From NCBI GenBank assembly GCA_958295675.1, contig OY282360.1, positions 658,026 through 722,025 of the forward strand: DNA of 64,000 nt. The letters run 5' to 3'. How positions within the stretch are numbered: the first letter of the stretch is position 1; the number at the start of each line of letters is the position of its first letter. This DNA comes from Minisyncoccota bacterium. Lineage in GTDB: Bacteria > Patescibacteriota > Minisyncoccia > Phycocordibacterales > JABAAK01. The position numbers and the translations under genes were made by a program. The notes beneath the pieces were generated by a model, which searched no databases, was not told the origin of the DNA, and saw nothing but the letters and a program-made list of their open reading frames with translations. This document shows, piece by piece, positions 25,836 to 56,865 of the stretch.

Positions 25836-25958
25836 ACTAATAAAGTAGCACAGTACTGCAAATATCAATCGCATACTTTGGAAAACAGAAATTTGTGGTG
25901 CGAAGTAGAACATGTGCACAAAGAATTGCAATAGGTATTTCACCGTTATAATAAAAAT

Positions 25959-26819
25959 ATGGTAAAAATGACAGATACTGCCATTAGGCAAAAGATACAA
26001 AGAGAAGGACAGTTGTTAGAAAATAGAATATTGTGCGGTAATGCCTCAGATATAATTAAAGGTTTCCCATCCGCTTTCATTGATCTCACTGTTACATCAC
26101 CACCATACGATGAATTGAGAAATTACGAGGGATATAATTTTGATTTTGAGTCCATAGCACAAGAATTATTTAGAGTAACAAAAACTGGAGGAGTTCTTGT
26201 ATGGGTTGTGGGTGATAAGATAAAAAATGGAGACAGGAGTTTGACGAGTTTTAAGCAGGTAATCTTATTTCAAGAATTGGGATTCCGTGTTCATGATGTG
26301 ATGATCTATAAGAAAAAAAACACACCGTTCATGCGATCAAACGGATACACAAACTGCTTTGAATTTATGTTTGTGTTGAGTAAGGGAAAACCAGCAGTGT
26401 TCAACCCGATTCAAATAGACACAGTTAGACAGGGATTAGAAATGCTCACACACAACAAAGGTCCGGATGGTGTGAACAAAAAAATATTAAAGACATTGAA
26501 CAGCAAAAAGACAAAAACAAACATTTGGGAATATGCAGTCGGACTACATGGCTCAACAAGTGATAAAATCGCTTTTGAGCACCCTGCCATCTTTCCAGAA
26601 AAACTCGCAGAAGACCATATTCTCTCTTGGACCAACGAAGGGGATATAGTATTTGATCCGATGTGCGGTTCAGGAACTACCTGTAAAATGGCACAAAAAA
26701 ACAATCGGATTTATGTCGGTTGTGATATCTCAGAAAAATATGTAGAAATTGCTAAAAAAAGAATGGAATGTGTCACTTCCAACTTATCTTTATTTAATAA
26801 ATCTAATAGCTCTTCTTAA
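25959..26819 (+). CDS. Beta-class N6-adenine/N4-cytosine DNA methyltransferase (Type II)
   Basis: Motif IV SPPY (VTSPPYDE) precedes motif I FDPMCGSGTT. AT-rich. Confidence 0.85.
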   Translation: MVKMTDTAIRQKIQREGQLLENRILCGNASDIIKGFPSAFIDLTVTSPPYDELRNYEGYNFDFESIAQELFRVTKTGGVLVWVVGDKIKNGDRSLTSFKQVILFQELGFRVHDVMIYKKKNTPFMRSNGYTNCFEFMFVLSKGKPAVFNPIQIDTVRQGLEMLTHNKGPDGVNKKILKTLNSKKTKTNIWEYAVGLHGSTSDKIAFEHPAIFPEKLAEDHILSWTNEGDIVFDPMCGSGTTCKMAQKNNRIYVGCDISEKYVEIAKKRMECVTSNLSLFNKSNSSS

Positions 26820-27371
26820 AATTTTCACGTCATCTTTAAATCTTCCTATTCCTGTATTACAACTATCACAAATCCAACCTCGTATTTTCCCCGTTTTGTG
26901 ATTATGATCAATGACTACTTTACTGGTAATACCCGCAATAGTTTTTTTGTGGCAAATTGGACATTCAAATGGAATTCTATTCGGCTTTGTTTTCAAAAAC
27001 TTTTTCCTCTCCTTTGAATCAACAGGTACTCCGTCAATGTATCTTCTGCAATCTCTACAAGAGGGTCTTCTAACTGTTCTGTTGTCTTTTGCATTTTGAT
27101 TCTTGTCAAAATGAGAAGTTTTTAATAACTTATGACAAACATTGCAAATCTTTTTTTGAAAATCATCTCCAGTTTTACTAATATTAAAAAATGATATCAA
27201 CTCTCTTTTTATATTCACTCTTTGTCCATTTCTAACAAAAAATACGGAATATTTTTCTCCAATCTTATCCTCAACCATCCCAACATCGTTCTTTTTCAGT
27301 AAAATATTCTTGGAGAATTTCACATCTTTTTTCAGAAAAGCAAATCTTGATTTCTTCTTTTTTATTGTCAT
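26790..27371 (-). CDS. Putative HNH-family restriction endonuclease (Cys-rich), cognate of the 25959 methyltransferase
   Basis: VIDHNHKTGKIRGWICDSCNTG HNH motif plus CxxC pairs. Convergent and overlapping 30 bp with the methyltransferase. Confidence 0.55.
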   Translation of the reverse strand: MTIKKKKSRFAFLKKDVKFSKNILLKKNDVGMVEDKIGEKYSVFFVRNGQRVNIKRELISFFNISKTGDDFQKKICNVCHKLLKTSHFDKNQNAKDNRTVRRPSCRDCRRYIDGVPVDSKERKKFLKTKPNRIPFECPICHKKTIAGITSKVVIDHNHKTGKIRGWICDSCNTGIGRFKDDVKILRRAIRFIK

Positions 27372-27657
27372 AGCAAATTTTTCTATGAACCAGTAAAACT
27401 GGCATTTTGGCTATACTCCTTTGGTTGCTGTGTACAGCATACCAAATTGCAAGAAAGTCCGCTTGCACAAAAATTCCTAAAGATGCAGTGTTCGCTTCTG
27501 CCCAAACACGAGAAATATTTTTTGTGTTGTATATTACTAATGCAACCATAGATAATCGGTAGAGCACTTGAAGCACCCCGTCAGTTCATAGGGCTCTACT
27601 CTATGGTTGCGCTGGCGGGGTGCTTCATTTATAACGCACAACGAATAAACCATCCTG

Positions 27658-27746
27658 CGGAGAGGGTGGGATTCGAACCCACGGTGCGGTGTGACCCGCA
27701 CACTCGTACTCCAAACGAGCGCCTTCGACCACTCAGCCACCTCTCC
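27658..27746 (-). tRNA. tRNA-Ser (anticodon GGA), type II long variable arm
   Basis: GGAGAGGTGGCTGAGTGGTCGAAGGCGCTCGTTTGGAGTACGAGTGTGCGGGTCACACCGCACCGTGGGTTCGAATCCCACCCTCTCCG. Anticodon loop TTGGAGT. Confidence 0.85.
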
Positions 27747-27783
27747 TTTTTCAATATGGTAGCACACTTACCGCGCACACCAA

Positions 27784-28170: not shown

Positions 28171-28178
28171 ACCGAAAA

Positions 28179-28406: not shown

Positions 28407-28407
28407 A

Positions 28408-33090: not shown

Positions 33091-33164
33091 AAATACCAAA
33101 AAACTTAACAAATAAATTTGCAGGATAACCACATAAGATTAACCACTCATTCAAAAAATGCTTG

Positions 33165-33764
33165 TTATTCATTATTCATATGTTGCATGGTCATTTTTCC
33201 GAAGTTTCCTGTGCCAACGAAAAGTCCTATTGGCTCAAGGATATTAACACGGTAAACATTCTGATAGTCAATAAGTGCTTGTTTAGTTTTTGGACCAAAA
33301 TAATATGTTTCATTACCAAGTGAACCAGCTCCTGTTGTTGATACTGTAAAACCTCTGGTGTTTAAGTATTTTTGGAGACGACGCACATCTTCACCAACTG
33401 ATCCAACGCTGAGTGTTCTTGTAAATTTACTGTTAGTATTGCCAAAATATTGACTGTTCGGTTTTGGTTTCTTGTATGCCTCCCACACTTCATAGGTACC
33501 GTCTCTGTGACTTCGTATTGGCTCATATGGTTGTGGTACCCCTTTGCTTTGATGACAATGTCGTTGATTGTACGCTGTGCCACCCCAACTACCACAATTT
33601 GTTCGGCAATAATGACACCCATCACCGGCAGTTCTACCAGGATGAGCATAGACGGGTTGTATTATACTCAATACAAATATACTGAAGAATAAAAGAAATA
33701 ACACTGGGGTAATGGTAATAACTGTATCTTTAGGTATTTTATTTGTAGAGTTGGTGGTAGTCAT
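33165..33764 (-). CDS. Secreted Cys/His-rich protein with a PG_binding_1-like domain paralogous to the N-terminus of the 6265 protein
   Basis: GEDVRRLQKYLN..YYFGPKTKQALIDYQ..ILEPIGLFVGTG versus GDDVRQLQRFLN..YYGPATARAVSKFQ..ILAPIGLTSGTG. Confidence 0.6.
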   Translation of the reverse strand: MTTTNSTNKIPKDTVITITPVLFLLFFSIFVLSIIQPVYAHPGRTAGDGCHYCRTNCGSWGGTAYNQRHCHQSKGVPQPYEPIRSHRDGTYEVWEAYKKPKPNSQYFGNTNSKFTRTLSVGSVGEDVRRLQKYLNTRGFTVSTTGAGSLGNETYYFGPKTKQALIDYQNVYRVNILEPIGLFVGTGNFGKMTMQHMNNE

Positions 33765-33995
33765 ATGCGTAATGCTACTACCCTTTCAAGAAATAATACT
33801 AAAATAATCATAGTCTGTCAAATGCTCTTTTTTACTGACTAATTAGGTAGATGTAGGATAAAATGCCCGACTTATTCGGGTGTTTCTAGACCAAATACCC
33901 GATTTTTTAGCGTTTTTTCGGGTGTTTTACCTCTCAGAACAATACTTGAAAAATAGTACACATCCCTTTCTTGTTTTGGCAAATCCATACCACCA

Positions 33996-34565
33996 TTAAA
34001 CAGTCTCTAAAAAGTATTGCTTTGAATCTGCTAATGTATTTTTTTCAACTTTCGCTGGTCCTTCATCATCTTCAAAGAAGTCAATTTTTTCTATCTTCAC
34101 TCTTTTGCAATTTCCGTCATTCAAATCTGTTTCGTATTTTTTCCATGCATGATATTTATGCACTTCTTGAATAAGATCTTTTGGTGTGTAATTACTGTAA
34201 TTATTAAAGGAATAATCAATTACTTCTCTGTCAATCTCGGAAAGATAATCCTCATCCACCTTTCCTTTGATTCGTACCATATCCCATATATTGTTTCTTC
34301 TGGACACTCGCCTCCACATCTTCTTACTCATCTCCAATTCCTGTTCAGATAAATATTCATTAGCATGATCTATCAAATTCGTTGTGCTTGACGGCACAGG
34401 ACCATTTCTTAACGCAAAATACTCTTCCCGCTGCAGCAATTCACTTCCGTATTTTCTCAACTTATACACATCAGCAATAACCAGCAACTTAACAAGTTTG
34501 ATGACATCAGCCCCCTTACGACCAAATTTGTTGAGTAAGTGGGCAATTTTTTGTATATTTTCCAT
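33996..34565 (-). CDS. Panacea-domain (DUF4065, SocA/PanA-like) protein
   Basis: LVKLLVIADVYKLRKYGSELLQREEYFALRNGPVP. Confidence 0.5.
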   Translation of the reverse strand: MENIQKIAHLLNKFGRKGADVIKLVKLLVIADVYKLRKYGSELLQREEYFALRNGPVPSSTTNLIDHANEYLSEQELEMSKKMWRRVSRRNNIWDMVRIKGKVDEDYLSEIDREVIDYSFNNYSNYTPKDLIQEVHKYHAWKKYETDLNDGNCKRVKIEKIDFFEDDEGPAKVEKNTLADSKQYFLETV

Positions 34566-34930
34566 AAATTGAAAATATGCTTTCTACACACATATAGTAT
34601 ACATACGCTTTATCTTTCGGTGTTTATTTTCAAGATATTTCTAAGGCACTGAAACAATGCAAAAATCAAGTATTTTTGGTATATACTTCACCTTAAACAT
34701 TCGATATTTTGATAAATAATCATTTTTCACACATTCAATAATACCTTGTATTTATTGCGATTTGTATACTACTATGATAAATAATGAAATTAGTCGGTGA
34801 AAATAATTACAATTTTTGTTTCGTAAAAAAGCCCGAAAGAGGAAATGTCTTGTTATATACCCTATCATTCAGTTTCTCCAAATCCAGCAAAATTTTTTTC
34901 CGTCTTGGGCTTCCTCCTGAGTTATAAATC

Positions 34931-35197
34931 TTATTGCTGTATTTCTTTAAGCGTTGCTCCACACTCAAAATAATCTCCTATCACCCCAACCATTCTTTCT
35001 GCCGACACAGCATCACCGCTTATAATATACTCATCATTATTTTGTGATTCAAATACATCGTCAACGATAATACTAGCGCCCCGTTTAATCTCTTCCATAA
35101 TTAATTGCGACAGAAAATCACGCCTTTCCTGTCTAAAAGAATCAGCTACAAACACAGTCATTGAAAATTTCCTTTCTACTATCTTTTTAGTTCCCAT
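34931..35197 (-). CDS. Small hypothetical protein
   Basis: 88 aa ORF in an AT-rich island. No motifs. Confidence 0.25.
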   Translation of the reverse strand: MGTKKIVERKFSMTVFVADSFRQERRDFLSQLIMEEIKRGASIIVDDVFESQNNDEYIISGDAVSAERMVGVIGDYFECGATLKEIQQ

Positions 35198-35318
35198 ATA
35201 TCTTTGTTTAACATTATTTTACCCTGTTTTTTCAGATTTTACTGAGCACTCCCAACTAAATGCTTCCATTTTTTCCCAAACAACTACCTCTTTACATCCC
35301 GCCTTCCAATCTACCCTC

Positions 35319-38386: not shown

Positions 38387-38387
38387 A

Positions 38388-45249: not shown

Positions 45250-45295
45250 CGCGTCCAAAGGGGGACATTTCAACCCACCAGAAGTGTTCCCCTTT

Positions 45296-45651: not shown

Positions 45652-45664
45652 GAAAACTAAAACA

Positions 45665-45697
45665 GGAACACCCACGCTATCGCGTGGGTTGTTCTTT
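45665..45697 (+). terminator. Intrinsic terminator after tmRNA
   Basis: gaacacccacgc tatc gcgtgggtgttc ttttt. Confidence 0.7.
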
Positions 45698-45751
45698 TTC
45701 ATGGCGCATCGTTTTGGCGCGTCATGCGTTGCGGAATTCGGCTGATTTCCT

Positions 45752-46468
45752 TCAGCAATACTGCTGTAGATGCGATTTAAAAAATGATAGTGCGTTAACT
45801 AAAGATTCTCTTTTCATTGGCTTAAAAAACTCTCCCCTATGAATCGGTCTATCTACTTTTCTATCTCCTTCTAATAAGGTGATTATATTGAGTGTGTAGT
45901 CAAAGTAAGACATAAGGGTGTGGGTGCTGGTGCTACCAAATTTTACCTCTTTTAAAATCTCTGAATAATCGCCACCAAGCTGACTCTCAAGTTGAAAGAG
46001 CACAATCTCCGCATCAGGAGAAATTTCTTTTACAAATGAGCCATCAATTAAAATTCTCTTTATCATCGCGTTTTCTGTGTATGATTTACATTCAATGGCC
46101 ATTACGAGATTACCTCGCACATAAACAGGAACATCTATGTTAAATTTGTACGAATAATCTTTTATGTTTTTTCGTATGTGTTCTGCTATTTCGTTTTCAA
46201 TAGTATCTAAATAATCTTTTTTAAGCGGGACAGTGACAGATCCCTGCTCGGTGCTCAGATCATCAATATTGCCCACCATATCAAACCATGCTCGCTTCAC
46301 AAGACCTCGTGCAAATGCTTCAACAAAAGAACCCTTAATAGAACGCTCTATACCGCCCGTTGCGCGTTTTGTATCCTGGACCTCGGAACCTATTCTCTTA
46401 ACTAATGAGTTATATGCAGCTAATAAATCATCAATGGTTGGAATTTCCGGTAAATCTTCTATATTCAT
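45752..46468 (-). CDS. Putative Type II restriction endonuclease (PD-(D/E)xK)
   Basis: NIDVPVYVRGNLVMAIECKSY. 4 nt downstream of a methyltransferase gene in the same orientation. Confidence 0.5.
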   Translation of the reverse strand: MNIEDLPEIPTIDDLLAAYNSLVKRIGSEVQDTKRATGGIERSIKGSFVEAFARGLVKRAWFDMVGNIDDLSTEQGSVTVPLKKDYLDTIENEIAEHIRKNIKDYSYKFNIDVPVYVRGNLVMAIECKSYTENAMIKRILIDGSFVKEISPDAEIVLFQLESQLGGDYSEILKEVKFGSTSTHTLMSYFDYTLNIITLLEGDRKVDRPIHRGEFFKPMKRESLVNALSFFKSHLQQYC

Positions 46469-46471
46469 ATA

Positions 46472-47647
46472 TTAAAACAACGAGCTTGCTAATCGTTTCT
46501 CCGCAACATTACAATATTCCGTTGATATATCCACACCGAGATACCTTCTATCAAGCATACGAGCAACGCTGGTTGTTGTACCCACACCATTAAAAACATC
46601 CAATATGATGTCATTTTTGAAACTGAAAAGTTTGAGACATCGCGATACAAGATTTTCAGGAAACATTGCAGGGTGCCCATATTCTTTCATATTCCTTTCA
46701 GGTGCAATTGACCACTTCGCAACAACCCACTTTTTAAACTCTTCAGCCGTTATATCAATATCTTCAGTTTTTCCAGAGTGCTTCAAATCACCTTTACAAA
46801 AAACTTCAATAAACTCCCATGTGTATTTCAGATATGGACTACTCGGACTCTTCCAACTACCCCACGCAGTATACTTGCAGTTATAGTTATTTTTTTCCCA
46901 AAGTATTTCCCCTTTCCACAGCATCCCAATATCCAACAAATGTTTAGAGATAATATGATGTGTCGGTATATAATCTGAAAACAGCGGCTGTACATTAATA
47001 ATCATTCTTCCGCCATATTTTAGGACTCGTTTTGTTTCTTCTAAAATTGCAAATAACTGATTGAAATAATCATCCCACTTTTTATCATCTGCACCATTCT
47101 CATATTCAAGTCCGAAATTATACGGCGGTGAGGTAATCATCACATCAATACAATTATTTGGTAACTTCCTGAGTACATCCAAACTATCCGCACATACTAT
47201 TGCATTCTCATATTCAAACGGCAAGATATTTTCTTCTATGCTTTTTTCTGTGTTTCTAATACTGGAGGTTCTTTTTTCCGATTTTTGTTTTCTGTTCTTT
47301 ACCTTTCTCTCTTTATTAAAATCAACATACACTCTTTTCCCACTCTTGAGCCCGTATGATCCGATACTGTTAACCGCCTCCACAAGATCATCTATAGCAC
47401 TGAGAACCTCTTCCTCTCCGTTGTTCGCTTTTACCTCCAGTGCTCTGCTTTTGAACCGTTCAAAATCAAGATTATTCACAAACAGCTTCACCTCATATGA
47501 TCCCATTGGCTCAAAATAAATATGTCTATTAAATTCATCCAAGAAAGATTTGACAACGCGTTTGCTTTTCTCATCAAATTCTTTGGTTGTCTTCAGAGTA
47601 ACCTCCTTATATTCCATATATATAGTATATATCAGAAAATTACACAA
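46472..47647 (-). CDS. Beta-class DNA methyltransferase with an about 150 aa N-terminal extension
   Basis: VMITSPPYNFG (motif IV) and LDVFNGVGTT (motif I). Confidence 0.8.
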   Translation of the reverse strand: MCNFLIYTIYMEYKEVTLKTTKEFDEKSKRVVKSFLDEFNRHIYFEPMGSYEVKLFVNNLDFERFKSRALEVKANNGEEEVLSAIDDLVEAVNSIGSYGLKSGKRVYVDFNKERKVKNRKQKSEKRTSSIRNTEKSIEENILPFEYENAIVCADSLDVLRKLPNNCIDVMITSPPYNFGLEYENGADDKKWDDYFNQLFAILEETKRVLKYGGRMIINVQPLFSDYIPTHHIISKHLLDIGMLWKGEILWEKNNYNCKYTAWGSWKSPSSPYLKYTWEFIEVFCKGDLKHSGKTEDIDITAEEFKKWVVAKWSIAPERNMKEYGHPAMFPENLVSRCLKLFSFKNDIILDVFNGVGTTTSVARMLDRRYLGVDISTEYCNVAEKRLASSLF

Positions 47648-47812
47648 TATGTGTTACTTTCTCACACCTATTTGCTTTTCCCTGCTATGAAGTGGCTTAC
47701 CATGATCTTTTAAAATTTTGTAAGCAACATCTTTAAAGGAGTTCATATATATAATGGGGCAATATATCACCCTATAGTGTAAAAATCTATGAATGAATTC
47801 CCCTAAATTTCT

Positions 47813-48613
47813 TTATAAGGAAAGTAGAGTTTTTATATAAAGAGAGTCATCAAAATTTTCCTGTTTTATTAAGGCAAAATAACCATTATTAATGCCTGCC
47901 CTTTCAAGAACATCTTCAAATTCTCTACTATCCAATCTGCAAATAACTTCAAATAGGTATGGAAAAATGATTGATACGGCGTTTATTCCAGATATCCTGC
48001 GGTGTATAGGAGAAAATATCCCAGTATTGCCTGATTTCGACATGTCAAATTTTTTGTACATTGAAAAAAGGAGATTAATATTTTTCTCAATATCACCAGA
48101 AGATAATTCGCATATTATTTTTTCCCTATACGGTCCAATGTTAATATGAGAAAACTTTTCTGATAAATCAAGTTTCAATATTAAAAATAATATAAATCTT
48201 CTAATCTTTTCTAAATCAATATCATTAATTATCCCATCTCTTAAATTACTATTAAGAAAGTCGCCAATCCTCATTAGGCGCCCATATTCTTCATCATCAG
48301 TTATAATATTAATATCCCCTTTCCCAATATTTTTTATAAATTCGAGAAAATATTTTTCATCTCCAGAAAATTTATTATCACAGTCAGCACAAAAAGTGTC
48401 TTTCATATATGGAAGATTGTTTGATTGAGTATATTTTGTGCTTCCATCTGCCATTATTATAGTTCCCCGTTTATCCTGAGAGTTCGGGTTGTTTTCATCA
48501 ATACCACAAATATATTTCCTGAATGCTTTCGATAATATATGTGCTTTAATGAGGGGTCTTTCTTTCCTACATAAAAAACAAATGCCAAAATCTCCTCTTC
48601 TATTTTTATTCAT
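47813..48613 (-). CDS. Hypothetical protein with an HNH-like CxxC..AHI motif
   Basis: GICFLCRKERPLIKAHILSKAF. Confidence 0.3.
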   Translation of the reverse strand: MNKNRRGDFGICFLCRKERPLIKAHILSKAFRKYICGIDENNPNSQDKRGTIIMADGSTKYTQSNNLPYMKDTFCADCDNKFSGDEKYFLEFIKNIGKGDINIITDDEEYGRLMRIGDFLNSNLRDGIINDIDLEKIRRFILFLILKLDLSEKFSHINIGPYREKIICELSSGDIEKNINLLFSMYKKFDMSKSGNTGIFSPIHRRISGINAVSIIFPYLFEVICRLDSREFEDVLERAGINNGYFALIKQENFDDSLYIKTLLSL

Positions 48614-48711
48614 ATTAATAGCTGATTATATCACAAACGCCAAATTGTAGTGCTTGAAAAATACCTGAAAATAGAATACAATACCGCAGGTTTCCTGATA
48701 GGGAGAAACGG

Positions 48712-49341
48712 ATGAGGAAGAATAGGAAGAAAAGGTTGGAAGAGTGGGACAAACACACACCCGAAGAAAAATTTGAGATTGTCTTCGGGAGCAATGATGT
48801 GTTCCATGAAAGCTTGCAAGAATGGAAGAAAAACGGCGGAAAAGGGAAGAATGTTCCTGATTTTGCTGATAGAACCACAGCGATTGGAAAACGACGATCA
48901 AGGATATACCAATTTGGCATATTGGTATGGGACAGATGGTCGCTACTGCCGGAAAACAGAATTTTCAACATCCATCTACACCGATGGTGGAGATCTGAAG
49001 AAATACTCGTCAAAGGACTCCATTCGCACAATATGCTTTTCTGCATCGGCATAACACTCAAAGGAAGTGTGTGGGAATTGGTAGACAAACATCCCAAGCA
49101 GAAAATTGCGAAAGTGGGTTCACTGATCGTGGTTGCTAATCCGGATGATGACGAATTAGAAAACGCAAAACTGGTACACAGATACTTCTTCCGGTGGTAT
49201 ACTCAGAAAGTCCGACATTCCGTGCTCATTCCGAAACGGTTTGCAGGAAAAACATGGACACTGTTCATAACAGGACCGGAGATACGGAAGAAGGGAGAAA
49301 GCAACGTGGTCCTCATCAAAGGATTTGACGAGGAGACGTAG
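48712..49341 (+). CDS. Hypothetical protein
   Basis: 209 aa ORF followed by a strong intrinsic terminator. Confidence 0.4.
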   Translation: MRKNRKKRLEEWDKHTPEEKFEIVFGSNDVFHESLQEWKKNGGKGKNVPDFADRTTAIGKRRSRIYQFGILVWDRWSLLPENRIFNIHLHRWWRSEEILVKGLHSHNMLFCIGITLKGSVWELVDKHPKQKIAKVGSLIVVANPDDDELENAKLVHRYFFRWYTQKVRHSVLIPKRFAGKTWTLFITGPEIRKKGESNVVLIKGFDEET

Positions 49342-49349
49342 CACACATA

Positions 49350-49380
49350 CCCACACACTGAAGTGTGTGGGTAACTTTTT
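49350..49380 (+). terminator. Intrinsic terminator
   Basis: cccacacac tgaa gtgtgtggg taacttttt. Confidence 0.75.
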
Positions 49381-49484
49381 GCCGATTATGCAAATTCCAT
49401 GAGAGTAAAGATACGCACACGCAGAAATCGTCCGTATGCTACACTGAATACAGGTATTAGTAATCATCCAAATTAGAAGATAGT

Positions 49485-50495
49485 ATGTTTAAAAATATAT
49501 TTGTCATAATAACAATCATCATTATCATTTTCCTTGTTGTATTCTTTGCCAGGAGTCCGCAGGATAGGAGTTTCGTCACATTCGGTACAGGCGGTATCAC
49601 CGGTGTCTACTATCCGACAGGTGGGGCGATCAGCAGTTTAATCAACAAGAAACAGGACACATACAACATCAAGTCGGCAGTCGCGTCCACAGGCGGATCC
49701 GTGTTCAACATCAATGCAGTTCTGGCGGGTAACATAGAATTCGGTATCGCGCAGTCCGACCGGCAGTACGAGGCGTACAACGGACTTGCGGAATGGGAGT
49801 CCGAGGGACCTCAGAAAAACCTGCGATCGGTTTTTGCAATCTACCCCGAAGCAATCACCTTAGTCGCATCCGAAAAGAGCGAGGTCAGCACCGTTTCCGA
49901 CTTGCGTGATAAACGGGTGAACCTCGGCAATGTCGGCTCCGGACAACTACAGAACGCGCTTACAGTGCTGAAAGTATTCGGATTGTCTGAAGATGATGTG
50001 AAAGCGGAGATGGTTAAAGCGGCTGAAGCACCAGGCCTGCTCCAGGATGGGCGCATAGATGCGTTCTTCTACACAGTCGGACATCCGAATGGCAACATCA
50101 AGGAAGCGGCATCCGGTCGCATACCAGTACGCATCATTCCTATTGAAGGTCCCGGCATCAACACACTTATCGTTGAAAACCCGTTCTACAGCACAACAAC
50201 CATTCCCATAACGATGTATCCGAAGAGTGTCAATACGGAGGACATCCCAACATTCGGTGTGGCAGCAACACTGGTAACTTCAAGTGAAACATCGGAAGAC
50301 ATTGTCTACGCGGTCACAAAAGAAGTGTTTGAGAATTTGGATGACTTCAAGGCCTTCCATCCGGCATATGAAACCATAACACCTGAATCCATGCTGGAAG
50401 GACTTTCCGCCCCATTACATAAGGGTGCAATCCGCTACTACAAAGAAGCGGGATTGCTGGAAAGAATAGACGATCGGCTGCTCGTTGAAGCATAA
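49485..50495 (+). CDS. TRAP transporter TAXI-family solute-binding protein
   Basis: N-terminal TM/signal. FVTFGTGGITGVYYPTGGAI. Confidence 0.8.
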   Translation: MFKNIFVIITIIIIIFLVVFFARSPQDRSFVTFGTGGITGVYYPTGGAISSLINKKQDTYNIKSAVASTGGSVFNINAVLAGNIEFGIAQSDRQYEAYNGLAEWESEGPQKNLRSVFAIYPEAITLVASEKSEVSTVSDLRDKRVNLGNVGSGQLQNALTVLKVFGLSEDDVKAEMVKAAEAPGLLQDGRIDAFFYTVGHPNGNIKEAASGRIPVRIIPIEGPGINTLIVENPFYSTTTIPITMYPKSVNTEDIPTFGVAATLVTSSETSEDIVYAVTKEVFENLDDFKAFHPAYETITPESMLEGLSAPLHKGAIRYYKEAGLLERIDDRLLVEA

Positions 50496-50520
50496 TCGGA
50501 TATATCGCCGATAATCGGCG

Positions 50521-52596
50521 ATGGATATGCAACACAACATACGAAACACATTCAGAATACTGAAAGATCGGCTGAAACCGGAAGTGCATGAGGAGATAGA
50601 GGAAGAGATTGAAGGTATTAGTATAAAGCGCACACCGCTGCTGATTATAATCGTTTCAGTTGCATGGGCGTTGTTCCAGCTCGCGCTTCCCCAACTACTC
50701 CTATTGGACACATTAGTTATCCGTGCGGTGCATCTCGCATTCGCACTGACATTAGCGTTTCTCACCGCAAATTTGTGGAAACAATCAAAACCGACGACGC
50801 TCAAAAAACCGTTCCGCAAAATCATCCGCTATGCAGCGATCAGTGTATGTATCGCGATAATAATCACCGCGGCGTGCTATATCATCATTGACTGGCAGGG
50901 TATCGCGGAGCGTGCGGGCATATTACTGACACGCGACATGCTGATGGGTGTGCTGTTAATCGCCATTCTGTTGGAAGCGACACGGAGAAAAATAGGCATG
51001 GCACTGGTGCTTACCGCCGCATTTTTTATATTCTACGCGCTCTTCGCTTCACATTTCCCCGGCATACTCGCGTTTAGAGATGTCTCAATAGTTGAGTTTT
51101 TCAATCAAATAACACTCTCATTTGAGGGTATCTACGGCATACCGCTCGGCATATCCGCATCAACAATCTTCCTGTTCGTGCTAATGGGCGCACTTTTGGA
51201 GCGCGCCGGTGCGGCAAGATACTTCATCAATCTCGCGCTCGCGCTGGTCGGCAGATCAAGGGGCGGACCGGCAAAAGCGGCAGTCGCATCAAGTGCGATG
51301 ATCGGCACCATATCCGGCTCAAGCATAGCGAATGTCGCGACATCCGGCGCATTCACCATCCCGCTAATGAAAAAGACGGGATTTCCGGCGAAAAAAGCGG
51401 CTGCAATAGAAGTTGCGGCAAGTACAGACGGACAGCTTATGCCGCCGATTATGGGCGCAGCGGCGTTCATTATGGCGGAATATCTCAATGTCCCCTATGT
51501 GGAAATCATTAAAGCAGCCCTTATCCCCGCGATTATCTCTCTCGCCTCCCTGTTCTTTGTGGTGCACTTTGAGGCATCAAAACTCGGTTTGCAAAAACTC
51601 GCAAAAGAACATATACCCCGCTTCACGAAAGTGCTATGGGGTGGCGCGCACTACCTTGCGGTCATAGGTCTTCTGCTCTACGAACTATTGGTGATGCGCC
51701 ATTCACCGGAGATGTCGGTGTATAAAGCGGTGCTGCTGTTGCTAGTAATTATCTTTGTCCAGGAACTATGGCGCGGATATAAAAAAGGATCAATCAATAA
51801 GGGTTTACGAGGTGCAGGCAGAACTATTGTTGAGGGATGTATTCTCGGATCAAAAAATATGGTGATGGTCGCACTCGCGACCGCGATCGCAGGCATTATT
51901 ATCGGTGTTATTAATATGGGATTAGGCAGCAGCATCACGCAACTGGTCAGCGCGGTCTCGTTGGGAAACATATTCCTGTTGCTGCTATTCACTGCGATTG
52001 CCTGTATTATCCTCGGCATGGGACTACCGACCACGGCAACATATATTGTAATGGCATCGCTCACCGCGCCTATAATTCTTGAATTTGGAGCGGAAATCGG
52101 TTTCATTGTGCCACTCATCGCCGCACACCTCTTCTGCTTCTACTTCGGCATCCTCGCGGATGACACTCCGCCGGTCGGTGTCGCCGCATACACCGCGGCA
52201 ACCATAGCAAAATCAGATCCTATAAAAACAGGTTTGCAATCATTCTTCTATGACATCAGAGATGCCATCATTCCTTTCATGTTCATTCTGAACACCGATC
52301 TCATTCTGTACAATATTGAAAACTTTTGGCTCGGTCTCCTCATCGCCATAATGGGCATTCTCGGCGCTCTCTCTTTCACCAGTGCATTGCAAGGTTGGCT
52401 TCTGATAAAAAGCAGGTGGTATGAAAACATCCTGTGCATCGGCGCGGCACTCCTCTTCCTTAATCCGGCATTTATCGGATTTTTCATCAATATTGCGGTA
52501 CCGTACTATGGCTACATAGCCGGATTGGCGATCTTGATGGGAGTCGTATACATACAAAAAACAAGAAAAAGTAAACAAGTTACGCTGGATGTATAA
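50521..52596 (+). CDS. TRAP transporter fused 4TM/12TM permease (TAXI-associated)
   Basis: 691 aa polytopic membrane protein immediately downstream of the TAXI binding protein. Confidence 0.8.
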   Translation: MDMQHNIRNTFRILKDRLKPEVHEEIEEEIEGISIKRTPLLIIIVSVAWALFQLALPQLLLLDTLVIRAVHLAFALTLAFLTANLWKQSKPTTLKKPFRKIIRYAAISVCIAIIITAACYIIIDWQGIAERAGILLTRDMLMGVLLIAILLEATRRKIGMALVLTAAFFIFYALFASHFPGILAFRDVSIVEFFNQITLSFEGIYGIPLGISASTIFLFVLMGALLERAGAARYFINLALALVGRSRGGPAKAAVASSAMIGTISGSSIANVATSGAFTIPLMKKTGFPAKKAAAIEVAASTDGQLMPPIMGAAAFIMAEYLNVPYVEIIKAALIPAIISLASLFFVVHFEASKLGLQKLAKEHIPRFTKVLWGGAHYLAVIGLLLYELLVMRHSPEMSVYKAVLLLLVIIFVQELWRGYKKGSINKGLRGAGRTIVEGCILGSKNMVMVALATAIAGIIIGVINMGLGSSITQLVSAVSLGNIFLLLLFTAIACIILGMGLPTTATYIVMASLTAPIILEFGAEIGFIVPLIAAHLFCFYFGILADDTPPVGVAAYTAATIAKSDPIKTGLQSFFYDIRDAIIPFMFILNTDLILYNIENFWLGLLIAIMGILGALSFTSALQGWLLIKSRWYENILCIGAALLFLNPAFIGFFINIAVPYYGYIAGLAILMGVVYIQKTRKSKQVTLDV

Positions 52597-52869: not shown

Positions 52870-52957
52870 GTGTTGAATACATACAATTATTTTTTTATCA
52901 TACAAGCACAGAACAAAAAGTGTACGAAAGAGATACAAAAAGATATACTATACTCAT

Positions 52958-53031
52958 CTCCTCGTAGCTCAGCTGGATAGAGCAACTCCCTTCTAAGGAG
53001 TAGGTCGCAGGTTCGAATCCTGCCGAGGAGG
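52958..53031 (+). tRNA. tRNA-Arg (anticodon UCU)
   Basis: CTCCTCGTAGCTCAGCTGGATAGAGCAACTCCCTTCTAAGGAGTAGGTCGCAGGTTCGAATCCTGCCGAGGAGG. Confidence 0.85.
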
Positions 53032-53051
53032 CCCGGAGAAATACCGGCATA

Positions 53052-53123
53052 CTCCCCGTAGTTTAACGGATAGAACACAGGCTTCCGGAGCCTGCGATGC
53101 GGGTTCAATTCCTGCCGGGGAGG
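53052..53123 (+). tRNA. tRNA-Arg (anticodon CCG)
   Basis: CTCCCCGTAGTTTAACGGATAGAACACAGGCTTCCGGAGCCTGCGATGCGGGTTCAATTCCTGCCGGGGAGG. Confidence 0.8.
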
Positions 53124-53180
53124 CTTAATGGAGGTGGAAATGACACCTTGCCGTAAGTTTTCCTCGTATACTATGTATGT

Positions 53181-54479
53181 ATGGATACGCAGTATGTAAA
53201 AATCCCGTTTCTGGGTACGGTCTGCGCTAAAACTTCACTAGGTACAGCGATATGTGGTACTCCGTCTACAATAACTGTTTCAAAAGATATCTTACAACCA
53301 AGGAAAAAATACTATTCACTAACAATAGGCGGCGATAGTATGCGACACACCTACAAAGATGGCGAGACCATTCTTGTAGAGAATACCAAAAATGCACAAC
53401 AGGATGATGTGATTATCGCCAGGACACAGGAGGGAGACACCATAAAGAGAATAAAAACTCTCACAGAAAAAAGAATTGTTCTTATAGCCGATAATAAAGA
53501 AACACTGTCATTTCCAAAAAATAAGATGGACATTCTCGGCGTTGTCATTGGCAAGATAGATGTAACAGAACAGGAAAGTGTCAACCTTGTCTCAAAAAAC
53601 ATACTGACTGAAAAATTGCACATAAAAAACAAAATTATCTGCGGTGACACGCTGATAGAAATGAGAAAAATTCCAACCGCAAGTGTTGATGTCATCATTG
53701 CCGATCCACCGTATAACATAGGAAAAGATTTCGGAAACAATAAGGACAAAAAAGATATGGAGGAATATATCGGATGGTGCAAGGTGTGGATTGATGAAGG
53801 ATTGCGGTGTCTTAAACCGGAAGGAACAATGTTTATTTATGGTTTTAGTGAAATACTAGCACACCTTGCAACAAACACACGGGCAAACAAAAGGTGGTTG
53901 GTATGGCACTACACCAACAAAAATGTTGCATCACTAAACTTTTGGCAGCGAAGCCACGAAGGGGTGCTGTGCGTCTGGAAAGAGAAAAAACCAAAATTTT
54001 TCAGAGACGCAATCAGAGAACCGTACTCCGAAACATTCTTGAAAAATTCCGCCGGCAAGGTAAGAAAATCAAAATCCTGCAGATTCAGCAATGGAGAGAG
54101 TACCACGATTTACAAGGCACATTCAAAGGGTGCTCTACCGCGAGATGTCATTAAAACCCCGGCACTTGCCGGAGGAGCAGGAAAATCGGAAAGACATTTC
54201 CTCTGCAAAACCTGTAACAAAGTATATTTGTCAAAAAATCTTGACGAACACAGAACACACACAACTCTGAAGCACCCAACACAAAAACCAAGAGTACTTA
54301 CTGAAAAATTGCTTCATTCCTGCCTCAATAAAAAAGGATTGGTGCTCATTCCTTTTGCTGGATCAGGATCGGAGTGCCTTGTGGCAAAACAACTCGGACA
54401 CGACTTTGTTGGTATAGAAATAAACGAAGAATATATACAATTAGCAAACGGTCTATTCAATAAGAAAATGCCTAAATAG
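53181..54479 (+). CDS. Fusion protein: N-terminal S24 LexA-like peptidase domain plus beta-class DNA methyltransferase (with a CxxC insert)
   Basis: IGGDSMRHTYKDGETILVE..DDVIIARTQEGDTIKRIK (S24 Ser/Lys dyad). VIIADPPYNIG (motif IV). IPFAGSGSE (motif I). CKTCNK. Confidence 0.75.
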   Translation: MDTQYVKIPFLGTVCAKTSLGTAICGTPSTITVSKDILQPRKKYYSLTIGGDSMRHTYKDGETILVENTKNAQQDDVIIARTQEGDTIKRIKTLTEKRIVLIADNKETLSFPKNKMDILGVVIGKIDVTEQESVNLVSKNILTEKLHIKNKIICGDTLIEMRKIPTASVDVIIADPPYNIGKDFGNNKDKKDMEEYIGWCKVWIDEGLRCLKPEGTMFIYGFSEILAHLATNTRANKRWLVWHYTNKNVASLNFWQRSHEGVLCVWKEKKPKFFRDAIREPYSETFLKNSAGKVRKSKSCRFSNGESTTIYKAHSKGALPRDVIKTPALAGGAGKSERHFLCKTCNKVYLSKNLDEHRTHTTLKHPTQKPRVLTEKLLHSCLNKKGLVLIPFAGSGSECLVAKQLGHDFVGIEINEEYIQLANGLFNKKMPK

Positions 54480-55308
54480 CATCAATCTCCTCTTTTTTCT
54501 CACGAAACACTTTCGGAGTAAACACCACAAACCCGTTACCCAACCTCTTCAGATTTTTATTTTCTATAAAATCAAGGTACGGCTTTCTATACTCGCCGTT
54601 CAGTTTCTTCGGTTTTTCAAACACTTCCTGATTCGGCACAGCGTATTCAATATCTATCGACTCACCCTGCAACTGTTGTTTACTTGTCCTCGGTCGGCGC
54701 ACCTCCCTACTCTGTGTGCGTTTTTTAACCTGATAGTTAAGCATGCGTCCTTTATAATGAACTTGTATATCTGCATTCTTTCTATCAAGCTCGGTAGACA
54801 TATTCACCGTACCGGCACCAAACACCTGTTCGGCAACATACCCGGCGTGTATCTGTGTAATGATGCTCGCCCAAGTCCGGTAAATTCTCGCAGGCAGTCC
54901 TCTATAAAAACAATCAGGACATATTGTTGTCTTATCCCGAAACTCCTCTATATCCTGTTCGTATTTTTTACTGTATCGTTTGTAAAATGTATCAAAGTTA
55001 ACATACTCACGCTTATCCCAGTAAATCTCGTACATTAAATCAAGTGCCTGTATATTTCTCGGCAAGTCCATCTCCACGATTTTAATCGGCTGGTACTTTT
55101 TCCTGTACCCAGCCAAATCCACACCCTCAAGGAATGAGTCAAAAGATTGTGTGTCGTTTATTGTATACATACTACTAAAAATATATCTCACACCTTGAGT
55201 TGCGGGTTGCATAGATATAGATAAAGTATAGCAAATAAACAAAATTATGTCTTTGTGTCGAATATCTTGATTTACAGCAAGATGTCTGCTAAAATACAAA
55301 TACAACAA
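54472..55308 (-). CDS. Hypothetical protein convergent with and overlapping the methyltransferase; candidate cognate restriction endonuclease
   Basis: 278 aa. The true start is probably an internal Met (MQPATQ.. or MYTIND..). Contains ICPDCFYRG. No clear nuclease motif. Confidence 0.35.
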   Translation of the reverse strand: MLYLYFSRHLAVNQDIRHKDIILFICYTLSISMQPATQGVRYIFSSMYTINDTQSFDSFLEGVDLAGYRKKYQPIKIVEMDLPRNIQALDLMYEIYWDKREYVNFDTFYKRYSKKYEQDIEEFRDKTTICPDCFYRGLPARIYRTWASIITQIHAGYVAEQVFGAGTVNMSTELDRKNADIQVHYKGRMLNYQVKKRTQSREVRRPRTSKQQLQGESIDIEYAVPNQEVFEKPKKLNGEYRKPYLDFIENKNLKRLGNGFVVFTPKVFREKKEEIDAI

Positions 55309-55534
55309 GTGATAAAATACTTATATATCAGATTCATACCCATACACAGTAATAAACAACAAGCTTGAGCCTGTTTTCCAAAAAATCCAACAGGCTGCAA
55401 AACCAGAAAGATTTAATGCTGCCTTTCTGCAAAAACTTGGTTTCGCCAGCTCAAATTATCGAGCAATCGTACCCCTGTTTAAAAAACTTGGTTTCATTAA
55501 TGAGGATGGGTCCCCCACCGAATATTATGATAGG

Positions 55535-55939
55535 TTGCGCGATGCAACAGACTGGCAATATGTGCTTGGGGAAAGAATAAAAGAATTGTACAAGGATCTC
55601 TACAATATAGACACTGAAATCCATCAAAAGAATCAAGATGAAATAAAGGGGGCTGTTAACCGTGTTACTGGAAAAGATAAAAAAAGTGTTGACAGATATG
55701 TCTTAACTTTCTCATCATTAAGCAATATGGCAAAGTTTGGGGTCTCACCGAAAACAACAAAGGTACCAGAAAGTGCAGCAAACACCAAAGAAAAACAAAA
55801 AAAGGACGAACACTCTGTCAAAGGAAGTTTAGATGGAATCAGTTTAAATCAAAACATCCAAATACAACTACCAATGACCAAAGACACTGCGGTTTACAAT
55901 GCTATCTTCCAGAGCATACGAGAAAATCTGTTGGATTGA
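55535..55939 (+). CDS. Hypothetical protein. The frame is open from 55316 without an in-frame ATG, so the start is uncertain.
   Basis: The conserved-looking upstream peptide ..AAFLQKLGFASSNYRAIVPLFKKLGFINEDGSPTEYYDRL continues in frame into the TTG-start ORF. Confidence 0.35.
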   Translation: MRDATDWQYVLGERIKELYKDLYNIDTEIHQKNQDEIKGAVNRVTGKDKKSVDRYVLTFSSLSNMAKFGVSPKTTKVPESAANTKEKQKKDEHSVKGSLDGISLNQNIQIQLPMTKDTAVYNAIFQSIRENLLD

Positions 55940-55940
55940 T

Positions 55941-56531
55941 ATGAAAAAAACAAACAAAAAGTATATGGATGATCTCAAAAGAATGACTTTCAACGGAATT
56001 CTGGCAATAGAAAGTCTCAATGCTTTATCAAAGAATGGAATTGATATAAGAGTGCTTGAAAAAAAGGAAGAAAGGGAAGAGCAGGAAAATGATTTTAGCC
56101 CAATTTTACTAAATAAAGCAAGAAGTATGAGCAGAGTTTACGAAATGTTTTTCTGTATGGAGAACGCTGCCAGATCACTGATAGAAGAGCGTCTTTCGGA
56201 ACGAATGAACGAAAATTGGTGGGAAACCTGTGTTTCAGAAAACATAAAAAAATCTGTCGAAACCTTAAGAAAGAAAGAAGAAAAAAATAAATACCACACC
56301 CAAAGAAATTTACATCCAATTGGGTACACAATGTTTGGAGATCTTGAAAAAATTATCATCAATAATTGGGAAAATTTTTCCGATATCTTTCCCGAACAAT
56401 ATTGGATATCGTCTCGTTTTAATGATTTAGAATTATCAAGAAATATCATCATGCACACAGGGACACTTCCAGAAACAGAAATAGGAAGAATTGAGGGAAT
56501 AGTTAGAGATTGGATAAACCAAACTGGGTAG
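55941..56531 (+). CDS. HEPN-like (R-N-x3-H) protein
   Basis: ELSRNIIMHTG motif at the C-terminal end of an alpha-helical protein, in a defense-island context. Confidence 0.45.
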   Translation: MKKTNKKYMDDLKRMTFNGILAIESLNALSKNGIDIRVLEKKEEREEQENDFSPILLNKARSMSRVYEMFFCMENAARSLIEERLSERMNENWWETCVSENIKKSVETLRKKEEKNKYHTQRNLHPIGYTMFGDLEKIIINNWENFSDIFPEQYWISSRFNDLELSRNIIMHTGTLPETEIGRIEGIVRDWINQTG

Positions 56532-56865
56532 TTTTATACAAAGCAATTTGTAAGTATTTCCAGTTTTGAATCTTTGCGACCGAAAAGTGCAAAAAAGATA
56601 AAACAGGGAAAACAGAGCGAAACATTCCATATCTCGCGTAAGAGTGAAAAATAGCAGAGTGTTTATGTATACAACTGCTTCGCTTTTTTGAATAGGTTCG
56701 AAACTGCGGGGTGAAGTGACGGTACCCAACCAAACGAACACCCTGTTACTATAGACCGTCCTGCCAGTACCTCCATAACTCCTACAGTACCATGACGAGG
56801 GCACGGGATTGGACGGCGGATTGAAAGGAAAAAGAAGTAAATATATCTACAATCTATACTACCTA

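Follow-up and report, generated by a model that had tools for sequence, protein, structure and literature searches.

The 64,000-nucleotide stretch of contig OY282360.1 analyzed here (positions 658,026 to 722,025, from Minisyncoccota bacterium; hereafter the window) carries four AT-rich blocks, each of which lies beside a tRNA or tmRNA gene and holds one predicted restriction-modification (R-M) system. RNA genes were called with ARAGORN and with Rfam, which agree on five genes, and for the GC figures the block borders were taken from the flanking genes. The RNA genes and the blocks anchored by them are the following.

27657-27746, minus strand: tRNA-Ser(GGA), anchor of block 1, with its 3' end at 27657 toward the block (ARAGORN; Rfam, 55.3 bits)
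41364-41437, minus strand: tRNA-Ile(UAU), anchor of block 2 (ARAGORN and Rfam)
45296-45651, plus strand: tmRNA, anchor of block 3 (ARAGORN and Rfam)
52957-53034, plus strand: tRNA-Arg(UCU), first gene of the pair anchoring block 4 (ARAGORN and Rfam)
53052-53124, plus strand: tRNA-Arg(CCG), second gene of the pair anchoring block 4 (ARAGORN and Rfam)
25836-27656: block 1, GC 0.350, predicted Hpy99I-like type II R-M system
33091-41363: block 2, GC 0.366, predicted type III R-M system
45652-49484: block 3, GC 0.365, predicted type II R-M system
53125-56865: block 4, GC 0.384, predicted TaqI-like type II R-M system

Outside the four blocks the GC content is 0.485 (mean 0.486 and standard deviation 0.033 in 800-bp windows), and within them it dips to 0.30-0.40. 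A blind segmentation at GC<0.40 recovered the same four blocks together with one non-coding stretch at 201-1200. The original prediction, made from the letters of the window, had placed four AT-rich blocks beside just these RNA genes, and this was borne out (GC 0.350-0.384 as compared with 0.485). The coordinates given there stand overall, except that block 2 begins at about 33.1 kb, just past the stop codon of RecG, and not at 33.8 kb; it occupies the entire interval between the RecG stop codon and the 3' end of tRNA-Ile. Each block is situated 3' of its RNA gene and starts 57-286 bp past the end of that gene. When four blocks with the lengths of the observed ones were placed at random, all edges fell within 300 bp of the 3' end of an RNA gene in 4e-5 of the trials, which indicates that the association between blocks and RNA genes is real and not due to chance. 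Pfam and PADLOC assigned four R-M systems to the window, exactly one per block, that is, four systems in 31 kb and one at each tRNA/tmRNA locus of the 64 kb, and no R-M gene was detected in the remainder of the window that was scanned. The blocks are surrounded by housekeeping genes (CNNM, RuvX, PyrG, RecG, Dcd, UDG, FtsH, and SmpB). Ten larger open reading frames (ORFs) sampled outside the blocks contained neither an R-M gene nor a mobility gene; those with a family match encode LeuRS, FtsK, RecA, EF-P, an HrpA-like helicase, and an AI-2E transporter. IleRS and RecO were identified via the annotation of the sister contig described below, and recA is located at 12740-13792.

Block 2 lies between tRNA-Ile(UAU) and RecG, and its genes are all co-directional with tRNA-Ile.

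40322-41101, minus strand: 259-aa protein of unassigned function, first gene of the type III cassette (homolog in the clade relative L090, 54% aa identity, tblastn)
38388-40325, minus strand: predicted type III Mod methyltransferase, 645 aa, with an N-terminal MerR-type helix-turn-helix (HTH) (PADLOC MTase_III 1.6e-79; Pfam N6_N4_Mtase and MerR_1)
37550-38386, minus strand: 278-aa protein with a DnaA-C-terminal-like HTH, between mod and res (Pfam Bac_DnaA_C 2.2e-8; NCBIfam DnaA C-terminus)
35319-37553, minus strand: predicted type III Res helicase-nuclease, 744 aa (Pfam ResIII 3.9e-16; PADLOC REase_III 2.4e-18)
34931-35197, minus strand: 88-aa ORF of unassigned function, in a segment common with the sister strain (96.6% aa identity)
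33996-34565, minus strand: SocA/Panacea-domain protein, 189 aa, putative antitoxin (Pfam SocA_Panacea 1e-14; phrog_1281; sister copy 89%)
33165-33764, minus strand: peptidoglycan-binding protein, 199 aa, secreted-looking (Pfam PG_binding_1 7e-8; the sister strain has a different, 142-aa gene there)

The mod and res genes lie in one operon and are predicted to form a type III R-M system. For the 259-aa protein no Pfam, NCBIfam, PHROG, or PDB match was obtained. The gene for the DnaA_C-like HTH protein overlaps res by 4 nt and has a GC content of 0.296, the second lowest among the island genes of the window; the type III system of the sister strain does not include such a gene. The only neighbor of the Panacea gene is the 88-aa ORF, located 366 bp upstream and displaying no family match.

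FtsH similarity places the window in Paceibacteria (Candidate Phyla Radiation, CPR; Patescibacteria), with Kaiserbacteria-like names among the closer matches. Contigs of the sister strain and of other relatives were located via FtsH homologs and RuvX. The sister strain was available as contig_1 of ENA ERZ19488997 (90,889 bp; loci L081 and L086), whose FtsH and RuvX are identical to those of the window. From window position 45668 to 41363 the two strains are 98.6% identical, and the alignment halts 2 nt past the discriminator base of tRNA-Ile. From there on, 6.05 kb of the window (35309-41362), coding for the 259-aa protein, Mod, the DnaA_C-like protein, and Res, correspond to 7.1 kb in the sister strain that code for a 142-aa protein, a SMODS/DncV-type cyclase, Mod and Res proteins unlike those of the window (42% and 29% aa identity, respectively), and a 194-aa protein. 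Homology restarts 10 nt past the stop codon of the window Res and continues for 1.39 kb at 94.8% identity (33923-35308), including the 88-aa ORF and the Panacea gene. A second swapped segment (33101-33922) extends over the peptidoglycan-binding gene, and from the RecG stop codon onward the alignment is gapless for 15.3 kb at 98.9% identity. Compared with the sister strain, block 2 is a mosaic of swapped and common segments.

The tRNA-Ile site was compared in six clade genomes, namely the window, the sister strain, and the four relatives listed here with the identity of their FtsH to that of the window.

L091 (FtsH 78%): type I R-M system exactly spanning the interval from tRNA-Ile to RecG
L083 (FtsH 83%): two methyltransferases and an AAA_5 (McrB-like) pair
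L084 (FtsH 83%): dCMP deaminase, methyltransferase, DruA, and DUF87 proteins
L090 (FtsH 79%): ortholog of the window cassette (259-aa protein 54%, Mod 59-75%, Res 78-79% aa identity)

Five different defense cargoes are found at this site in the six genomes, the window and L090 having one cassette in common. Conservation in L090 is clear for the 259-aa gene, Mod, and Res, and the middle, DnaA_C-like gene is fragmented there; the window Res is 78-79% identical to that of L090 and 29% identical to that of the sister strain. As the window cassette is common to the more distant L090 and not to the sister strain, the cassette of the latter would be the replacement, and the cassette beside tRNA-Ile in block 2 appears to have been replaced recently in the sister strain. 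A similar picture emerges from L083 and L084, whose core is 87% identical and whose homology ends 7 nt after tRNA-Ile. Beyond this point they have island segments in common that are 94-96% identical and interspersed with unique inserts, and the greater similarity of these segments than of the core indicates horizontal exchange of modules.

The gene order SmpB-FtsH-tRNA-Ile(UAU)-RecG is kept across the class. The species representatives of GTDB, among which the best FtsH match was 59%, were used for deep synteny only. In many distant Paceibacteria tRNA-Ile lies directly beside RecG with gaps of 9-550 bp; examples without an insert are L003 (39 bp), L008 (98 bp), L010 (11 bp), and L018 (9 bp). 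Judging from this arrangement in distant members, the 8.3 kb between the two genes in the window are inserted material and the interval is an insertion site. Over all genomes and sites, defense systems dominate the hotspot cargo, which comprises predicted R-M systems of types I, II, and III, a SMODS cyclase (CBASS-type), and DruA/Druantia-like, AAA_5/McrBC-like, Bub-like, PDC-M34/HEPN, and Panacea genes. The idea of insertion hotspots proximal to tRNA genes, one of the two possibilities raised originally, is supported by the five cargoes in six genomes, by the break at the 3' end of tRNA-Ile, and by the variable flank of the tmRNA gene described below.

Genes and sites that would betray a site-specific element were searched for at several levels. 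Among the island genes scanned with Pfam, NCBIfam, and PHROGs, none has a domain of an integrase or transposase, Pfam searches on six-frame translations of all island intergenic DNA gave no integrase remnant, and no integrase was present in the Pfam-annotated islands of six relatives. The earlier statement that no integrase or transposase is left is upheld for island genes and for the intergenic six-frame translations. Direct repeats of tRNA 3' ends, which had been proposed as a mark of the island boundaries, were searched for by blastn-short and by Smith-Waterman alignment against 300 shuffles, and none above chance was found at the distal borders (p 0.33-0.95); the best att-like matches have 7-9 identical nt (gapped or mismatched alignments of up to 18 nt). 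The heptamer AGGCGGG, which occurs at the 3' end of tRNA-Ile and at the junction at 35308, was considered as an att repeat and rejected (p 0.52 against shuffles). The block borders have no repeat in common, and the only substantial repeat encountered in the search is the one bracketing a dapB fragment described further below. Carriage by phages was considered as well; viral contigs gave distant HNH homologs (29-44%), two restriction endonuclease homologs (40-44%), and solitary methyltransferase domains, and a phage vector was rejected as unsupported.

Block 1, beside tRNA-Ser(GGA), contains two genes.

25959-26819, plus strand: predicted beta-class N6/N4 DNA methyltransferase, 286 aa (Pfam N6_N4_Mtase 4e-43; PADLOC MTase_II/oMTase)
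26790-27371, minus strand: predicted Hpy99I-like His-Me/HNH restriction endonuclease, 193 aa (PDB 3fc3, Hpy99I, E 2.8e-44, full length)

The match of the second protein to 3fc3 spans residues 15-193 of 193, and it was recognized also by Pfam His_Me_b4a2 and Endonuclease_7 and by PADLOC REase_II (5.5e-44). Its gene is convergent with the methyltransferase gene and overlaps it by 30 nt. Judging from these matches, block 1 represents a complete type II R-M system with both genes at full length. In the sister strain block 1 differs by 1 mismatch in 1821 nt (99.95% identity). The divergence between the two strains is 0.19% in a tract of about 6 kb that holds block 1 as compared with 1.4-2.3% farther out, which is the signature of a recombination tract, and this tract looks recently recombined. 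Three short contigs from other samples (L087, L088, and L089) encode a RuvX identical to that of the window; two of them end at window position 27333, 38 nt inside the Hpy99I-like gene, and the third folds back at tRNA-Ser. These contig ends hint at strain variation at block 1 in other populations.

Block 3 follows the tmRNA gene and has the features listed here.

45652-48700: block 3 proper, GC 0.30-0.37 by gene, predicted type II R-M system and 266-aa protein
45752-46468, minus strand: predicted type II restriction endonuclease, 238 aa (PADLOC REase_II PDLC03499 1.1e-64, profile positions 8-240 of 241)
46472-47647, minus strand: predicted beta-class N6/N4 methyltransferase (Pfam N6_N4_Mtase 7e-38; PADLOC MTase_II; public call of 381 aa from 47617)
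47813-48613, minus strand: 266-aa protein of unassigned function, GC 0.295 (weak phrog_19960 match only)
48712-49341, plus strand: cupin/cysteine-dioxygenase-like gene, 209 aa, GC 0.44 (phrog_4786 1.2e-11; identical with the gene call of the public contig)

The methyltransferase and the endonuclease, both of full length, are predicted to constitute a type II R-M system. No PDB or Pfam match was obtained for the 266-aa protein, and the cupin-like gene is probably not a defense gene and marks the edge of the block. In a clustering of about 15 billion sequences the block 3 proteins are singletons without a relative at 90% identity, and the same search gave no relative at 90% identity for the TaqI-like enzyme and the HEPN protein of block 4 or for a pair of TAXI-TRAP transporter genes located between blocks 3 and 4. 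The sister contig ends 17 nt past the 3' end of the tmRNA gene, and from this end and from the missing 90% relatives it follows that the sister strain lacks these regions, differs there, or has them in DNA that was not assembled. Each relative in which the tmRNA flank is visible (L082, L083, L084, L090, and L091) has a different one. This flank consists of two R-M systems, one HaeII-type and one decayed, and a Bub-like ubiquitin-type system in L082, of genes without assigned function and a DUF8202 protein in L083 and L084, of NucS-like and ParA-like genes and TAXI-TRAP in L090, and of a cupin gene in L091.

In block 4, which follows the tRNA-Arg pair, four genes were recognized.

53181-54479, plus strand: predicted S24-domain methyltransferase, 432 aa (Pfam Peptidase_S24 2e-17, N-terminal, LexA/UmuD-type; N6_N4_Mtase 3e-40)
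54472-55308, minus strand: predicted TaqI-family type II restriction endonuclease (Pfam RE_TaqI 2e-35, covering 2-224 of 229; PADLOC REase_II; public call of 246 aa from 55212)
55352-55939, plus strand: DUF5343 protein, PDC-M34A (PDLC04589 1.1e-34)
55899-56531, plus strand: Swt1-like HEPN protein, PDC-M34B (Pfam HEPN_Swt1 2.4e-11; PADLOC PDLC04592 4e-65)

The first two genes, both of full length, are predicted to form a type II R-M pair. The public call of the methyltransferase starts at 53340 and gives a protein of 379 aa in which the S24 domain is split; orthologs begin with MDTQYVKIPFLG, which supports the 432-aa ORF from 53181 over the public call. M34A and M34B lie side by side and correspond to the candidate two-gene system PDC-M34 of PADLOC. 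The DUF5343 frame is open from 55316 and contains the whole domain in one frame from about 55361, and there is no ATG, GTG, or TTG in it before 55535 (about codon 60 of the domain). Translation may begin with the ATA at 55352, or this triplet may be a start codon lost by mutation, and PDC-M34A may be inactive. A frameshift in DUF5343 was considered and rejected, the N-terminal half being in the same frame according to Pfam on six-frame translations. With this inventory, the expectation that each block carries an R-M module plus accessory HNH, HEPN, or Panacea genes is confirmed for the R-M part in all four blocks and for the accessory part in blocks 2 and 4 only. The supposed accessory HNH gene of block 1 turned out to be the restriction enzyme itself, the Hpy99I homolog, and block 3 has none of the three gene types and contains instead the 266-aa protein and the cupin-like gene.

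Within the clade, orthologs of the block 4 methyltransferase measure 425-446 aa and are 77-80% identical to it, and the FtsH proteins of the same genomes are 73-83% identical. There are also thousands of longer relatives of about 505 aa with 47-52% identity, which have the domain order LexA_DNA_bind, Peptidase_S24, and N6_N4_Mtase and are annotated as "LexA" in many CPR metagenome-assembled genomes (MAGs). The winged HTH (wHTH; PF01726) of these long forms is missing in the window protein and in the clade orthologs of 425-446 aa. In an alignment of these proteins (A1) the dyad of Ser53 and Lys89 is invariant, and the cleavage site reads A-K in the window and A-G in the full-length fusions. Eighty metagenomic loci with the long-form fusion were examined (L093-L172). 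In 62 of the 80 a TaqI-like endonuclease, 46-65% identical to that of the window, is encoded immediately downstream in convergent orientation. A tRNA gene lies within about 900 bp beyond the endonuclease in 13 loci, and in 13/13 its 3' end points toward the module; several of these loci look related to each other, so that perhaps eight are independent. Of the 50 loci with flanks of sufficient length, 43 have a module richer in AT than its surroundings (p 2e-7). Among 60 unique upstream regions, 24 contain the palindrome TATACT-N3-AGTATA with ≤2 mismatches at a distance of 30-45 nt from the start codon, where 1.6 would be expected, and it overlaps the likely -10 box of the fusion methyltransferase gene. 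The neighbors of the fusion module vary between genomes and include tRNA-Ser(GGA), RuvX, SmpB, and PyrG, whose neighborhoods hold blocks in the window too. Being old and widespread across CPR, the module that makes up the core of block 4 would not be a recent import, and its methyltransferase is best regarded as a conserved CPR gene; the occurrence of the module beside different tRNA genes and different neighbors in different genomes suggests that it also moves.

The methyltransferase domain of block 4, including its Cys2-His2 insert, has homologs of 50-58% identity on many contigs of giant-virus MAGs in IMG/VR (L173-L252; mean GC 0.31). They invariably occur alone, unaccompanied by an S24 domain or an endonuclease, and could reflect gene exchange between giant viruses and CPR or contamination of the bins with CPR sequences.

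Two other features between and beside the blocks concern foreign DNA.

49485-52596, plus strand: TAXI-TRAP transporter pair, between blocks 3 and 4, normal GC
56840-58313, minus strand: foreign fragment and its bracketing repeats, at the far edge of block 4

Within CPR the TAXI-TRAP pair is almost confined to this clade, where relatives were found only in L085 and L090; otherwise the best matches are 55-57% identical and belong to non-CPR phyla (Deferribacter, Desulfohalobiaceae, Aminicenantes, and similar), which shows that the pair itself was acquired horizontally. In L090 the pair lies near the tmRNA gene, inverted and fragmented, and in L085 it has a different genomic context. The foreign fragment (window 56977-58155, 1179 bp) contains dapB and the first 356 nt of a polyprenyl synthase gene and is 96.3% identical to a 2.17-Mb non-CPR contig (L092) from a related sample series. 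Around it, the last 137 nt or so of the HrpA-like gene are duplicated (56840-56976 and 58177-58313; diverged copies, 79-83%), and the truncated polyprenyl synthase is fused to the duplicated HrpA tail. The bracketing duplication speaks for a real insertion rather than a mis-join, and the fragment looks like a real and recent insertion across phyla whose donor was possibly the host organism.

Several short palindromes are extremely rare in the window. ACGT was observed 10 times with 126 expected (observed/expected, O/E, 0.08), GGCC 16 times with 118 expected (0.14), and TCGA 40 times with 188 expected (0.21), and the O/E values of CTAG and AGCT are 0.42 and 0.44. They are avoided in islands and core alike; a relative enrichment is seen for CTAG in block 2 (8 of 22 sites) and for both CTAG and GGCC in the dapB fragment. 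This avoidance fits a strong long-term exposure to R-M systems that cut at 4-bp sites, including a TCGA-specific one, and it fits an origin of the island DNA from donors under the same pressure. The only low-GC part of the window that is not beside an RNA gene is the stretch 1-921, upstream of the end of leuS (about 920 bp, GC about 0.42, no ORF above 84 aa), for which Rfam gave no match even at E 0.1; it reaches the edge of the window, and an RNA gene just beyond is possible.

From these data we consider the blocks to be core-flanked accessory and defense hotspots in which cassettes turn over by homologous recombination and not by a site-specific recombinase, with a probability of roughly 0.6. 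A hotspot would be the interval between a conserved RNA gene and a conserved core gene (RecG in the case of tRNA-Ile) in a genome of about 0.72 Mb. Inside this interval whole defense cassettes would be gained, lost, and replaced, the exchange proceeding by DNA uptake and subsequent RecA-dependent homologous recombination in the conserved flanks, and the low GC content would derive from a mobile AT-rich gene pool common to co-occurring CPR lineages. Recombination-driven turnover is favored by the breakpoints at the edge of conserved sequence, the mosaicism, the low-divergence tract, the island segments that are more similar than the core, and the presence of recA. Integrase-free hotspots with turnover by recombination at flanking core genes are over-represented in transformable species (Oliveira et al., 2017; PMC5635113), and genes for natural competence and homologous recombination have been reported in CPR (PMC10187176, PMC12455944). 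The blocks differ in age: the tRNA-Ile cassette of block 2 was swapped recently, the tract of block 1 looks recent, and the R-M pair of block 4 is old.

Several points weigh against this interpretation. The recombination event itself is something that we infer, and one sister strain was available for comparison. The exact breakpoint at the 3' end and the orientation of all four blocks could also be expected from a tyrosine integrase acting in trans or since lost. The signs of a possible excess of recombination in flanking core genes, in the block 1 tract and in L083/L084, come from two genome pairs, and the low-divergence tract of block 1 comes from a single strain pair. The variability of blocks 3 and 4 is based on absence from one sister assembly and not on a sequenced alternative or empty site. 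The R-M pair of block 4 is widely conserved with an identity that tracks that of FtsH, and this pair may be vertically inherited and not hotspot cargo. In more distant Paceibacteria the occupied intervals between tRNA-Ile and RecG contain genes for surface proteins and transporters with normal GC, which suggests that the character of a defense hotspot is specific to the clade of the window. Finally, L082 encodes an HTH_38 protein of 360 aa, possibly a transposase of the IS30 type, whose gene is the sole possible mobility gene in the islands of the relatives.

An origin of the blocks as decayed integrative islands, inserted by a tyrosine integrase at the 3' end of the tRNA or tmRNA gene and since deprived of the integrase and the distal att site, is unlikely, although it is the strongest of the other explanations. 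Integrases classically target tRNA and tmRNA genes at their 3' ends (Williams, 2002, as cited in PMC5635113 and PMC10121019), and the position of 4/4 blocks on the 3' side, the break in the sister strain 2 nt past the tRNA-Ile discriminator, and the occurrence of AGGCGGG at both the tRNA-Ile 3' end and the internal junction 35308 would suit such an origin. However, no integrase domain was seen in the island genes, the intergenic six-frame translations, or the annotated islands of six relatives, and neither the distal repeats of tRNA 3' ends nor the heptamer exceeded the shuffled controls. In addition, the recent cassette swap between strains of 98.6% identity left no recombinase, and the blocks measure only 1.8-8.3 kb and are nearly all cargo. 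The original suggestion of old or decayed integrative elements received no positive support, as neither tRNA repeats nor an integrase or a fragment of one came to light.

Considerably less probable than turnover in hotspots, and somewhat less so than decayed islands, is an explanation in which the blocks are not accessory at all and consist of long-resident, vertically inherited genes, their low GC being inherent to R-M genes and their proximity to tRNA genes a matter of gene order or co-transcription. In its favor, the clade orthologs of the block 4 methyltransferase are 77-80% identical where FtsH is 73-83% identical, the TaqI-like partner is present in 62 of 80 distant loci, the AT content of the module exceeds that of its flanks in 43 of 50, and TCGA, the canonical TaqI site, is strongly avoided in the window (O/E 0.21). 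Block 1 is kept in the sister strain with its 1 mismatch in 1821 nt, and the type III cassette is common with L090 at about core-genome identity. Against vertical inheritance, block 2 differs between strains with identical FtsH, the tRNA-Ile site holds five different cargoes among the six clade genomes, the block 3 proteins have no relative at 90% identity in the collection, the LexA-methyltransferase module lies beside different tRNA genes and neighbors, and island segments of L083/L084 exceed the core in similarity. Conservation in relatives, which would make islands core rather than accessory, is seen in part, for two elements, namely block 1 (99.95% in the sister strain) and the R-M pair of block 4 (CPR-wide, in different contexts).

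An artefact of assembly or binning, in which repeated tRNA genes led to chimeric contigs or contaminating contigs were included, would be in line with the short related contigs that break near tRNA-Ser (L087-L089), with the break of the sister contig at the tmRNA gene, and with a dapB fragment 96% identical to an unrelated 2.17-Mb contig. It is very improbable, since block 1, the common part of block 2, and the core flanks were recovered gap-free over 15.3 kb in an independent assembly, the same architecture recurs in five further relatives that were assembled independently, and the repeats on both sides of the dapB fragment are diverged copies of the 3' end of the HrpA-like gene, which is the host's own.

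In Proteobacteria, hotspots at tRNA and tmRNA genes that hold defense islands are well known (PMC10121019, PMC10250203). The hotspots of the window resemble integrase-poor, core-flanked hotspots (PMC5635113; those of P. aeruginosa, PMC10250203; hotspot #37 and the tmRNA hotspot #9 of E. coli, PMC10121019) in having fixed intervals, conserved flanks, and varying defense cargo; in those cases too, many instances are without a recognizable mobility gene and tRNA/tmRNA loci are among the sites. They differ from them by the CPR host with a genome of about 0.7 Mb, by blocks of only 1.8-8.3 kb with one or two systems each, and by the occupation of every RNA locus in 64 kb. No mobile element was seen at these sites in seven genomes, whereas E. 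coli tRNA hotspots are mostly occupied by prophages, satellites, and integrative mobilizable elements. With islands that integrate into tRNA or tmRNA genes, such as tyrosine-recombinase islands and P4-like satellites, the blocks have in common the location at an RNA 3' end, an atypical composition, and accessory cargo including R-M, but they are without integrase, att direct repeats, and excision or mobilization genes. Islands of aquifer Patescibacteria (PMC12455944) belong to the same phylum, were detected by composition, and carry R-M cargo (a type I R-M island), with horizontal gene transfer mostly among Patescibacteria; the main text of that report does not contain the word "tRNA" and it gives no strain-level breakpoints. 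What is notable here is that a familiar kind of tRNA/tmRNA hotspot occurs in an unusual lineage, at high density, without mobility genes, and with a cassette swap resolved to the base pair.

The lead with the most novelty is the LexA-methyltransferase/TaqI-like module, through which R-M expression could be tied to DNA damage. Methyltransferases with a regulatory HTH that control their own expression include M.SsoII and M.EcoRII, and C-protein-controlled R-M systems are also known. The CPR relatives of the block 4 enzyme are like these in having an N-terminal DNA-binding domain and a palindrome at their own -10 box. Unlike enzymes of the M.SsoII/M.EcoRII type, the fused module contains a complete LexA (wHTH, Ala-Gly, and Ser/Lys) that would link the control of R-M to RecA and DNA damage, and the window copy is without the HTH and the cleavage site. 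No description of LexA-methyltransferase fusions in CPR was found in the literature searched. It is a tentative proposal that the fusions constitute a hitherto undescribed, CPR-wide R-M class in which a methyltransferase is fused to a complete LexA and accompanied by a TaqI-like endonuclease. Such a protein might repress its own gene via TATACT-N3-AGTATA, and its cleavage, promoted by RecA* upon DNA damage, would couple the balance of restriction and modification to the SOS response; it would perhaps be the only LexA in the genome. The copy in the window would then be a degenerate one, having lost the HTH and the cleavage site, and the position of the module on the 3' side of tRNA genes would make integrase-free, tRNA-proximal hotspots a general trait of CPR.

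Bacteria of the CPR/Patescibacteria mostly have no CRISPR and are thought to rely on R-M and other innate defenses. How defenses are gained and swapped in such small genomes is poorly documented, and the window provides a strain-resolved example. The swap of a whole cassette between near-identical strains at the 3' end of a tRNA gene, without mobile machinery, fits a recombination-driven turnover of defense systems in naturally competent bacteria.

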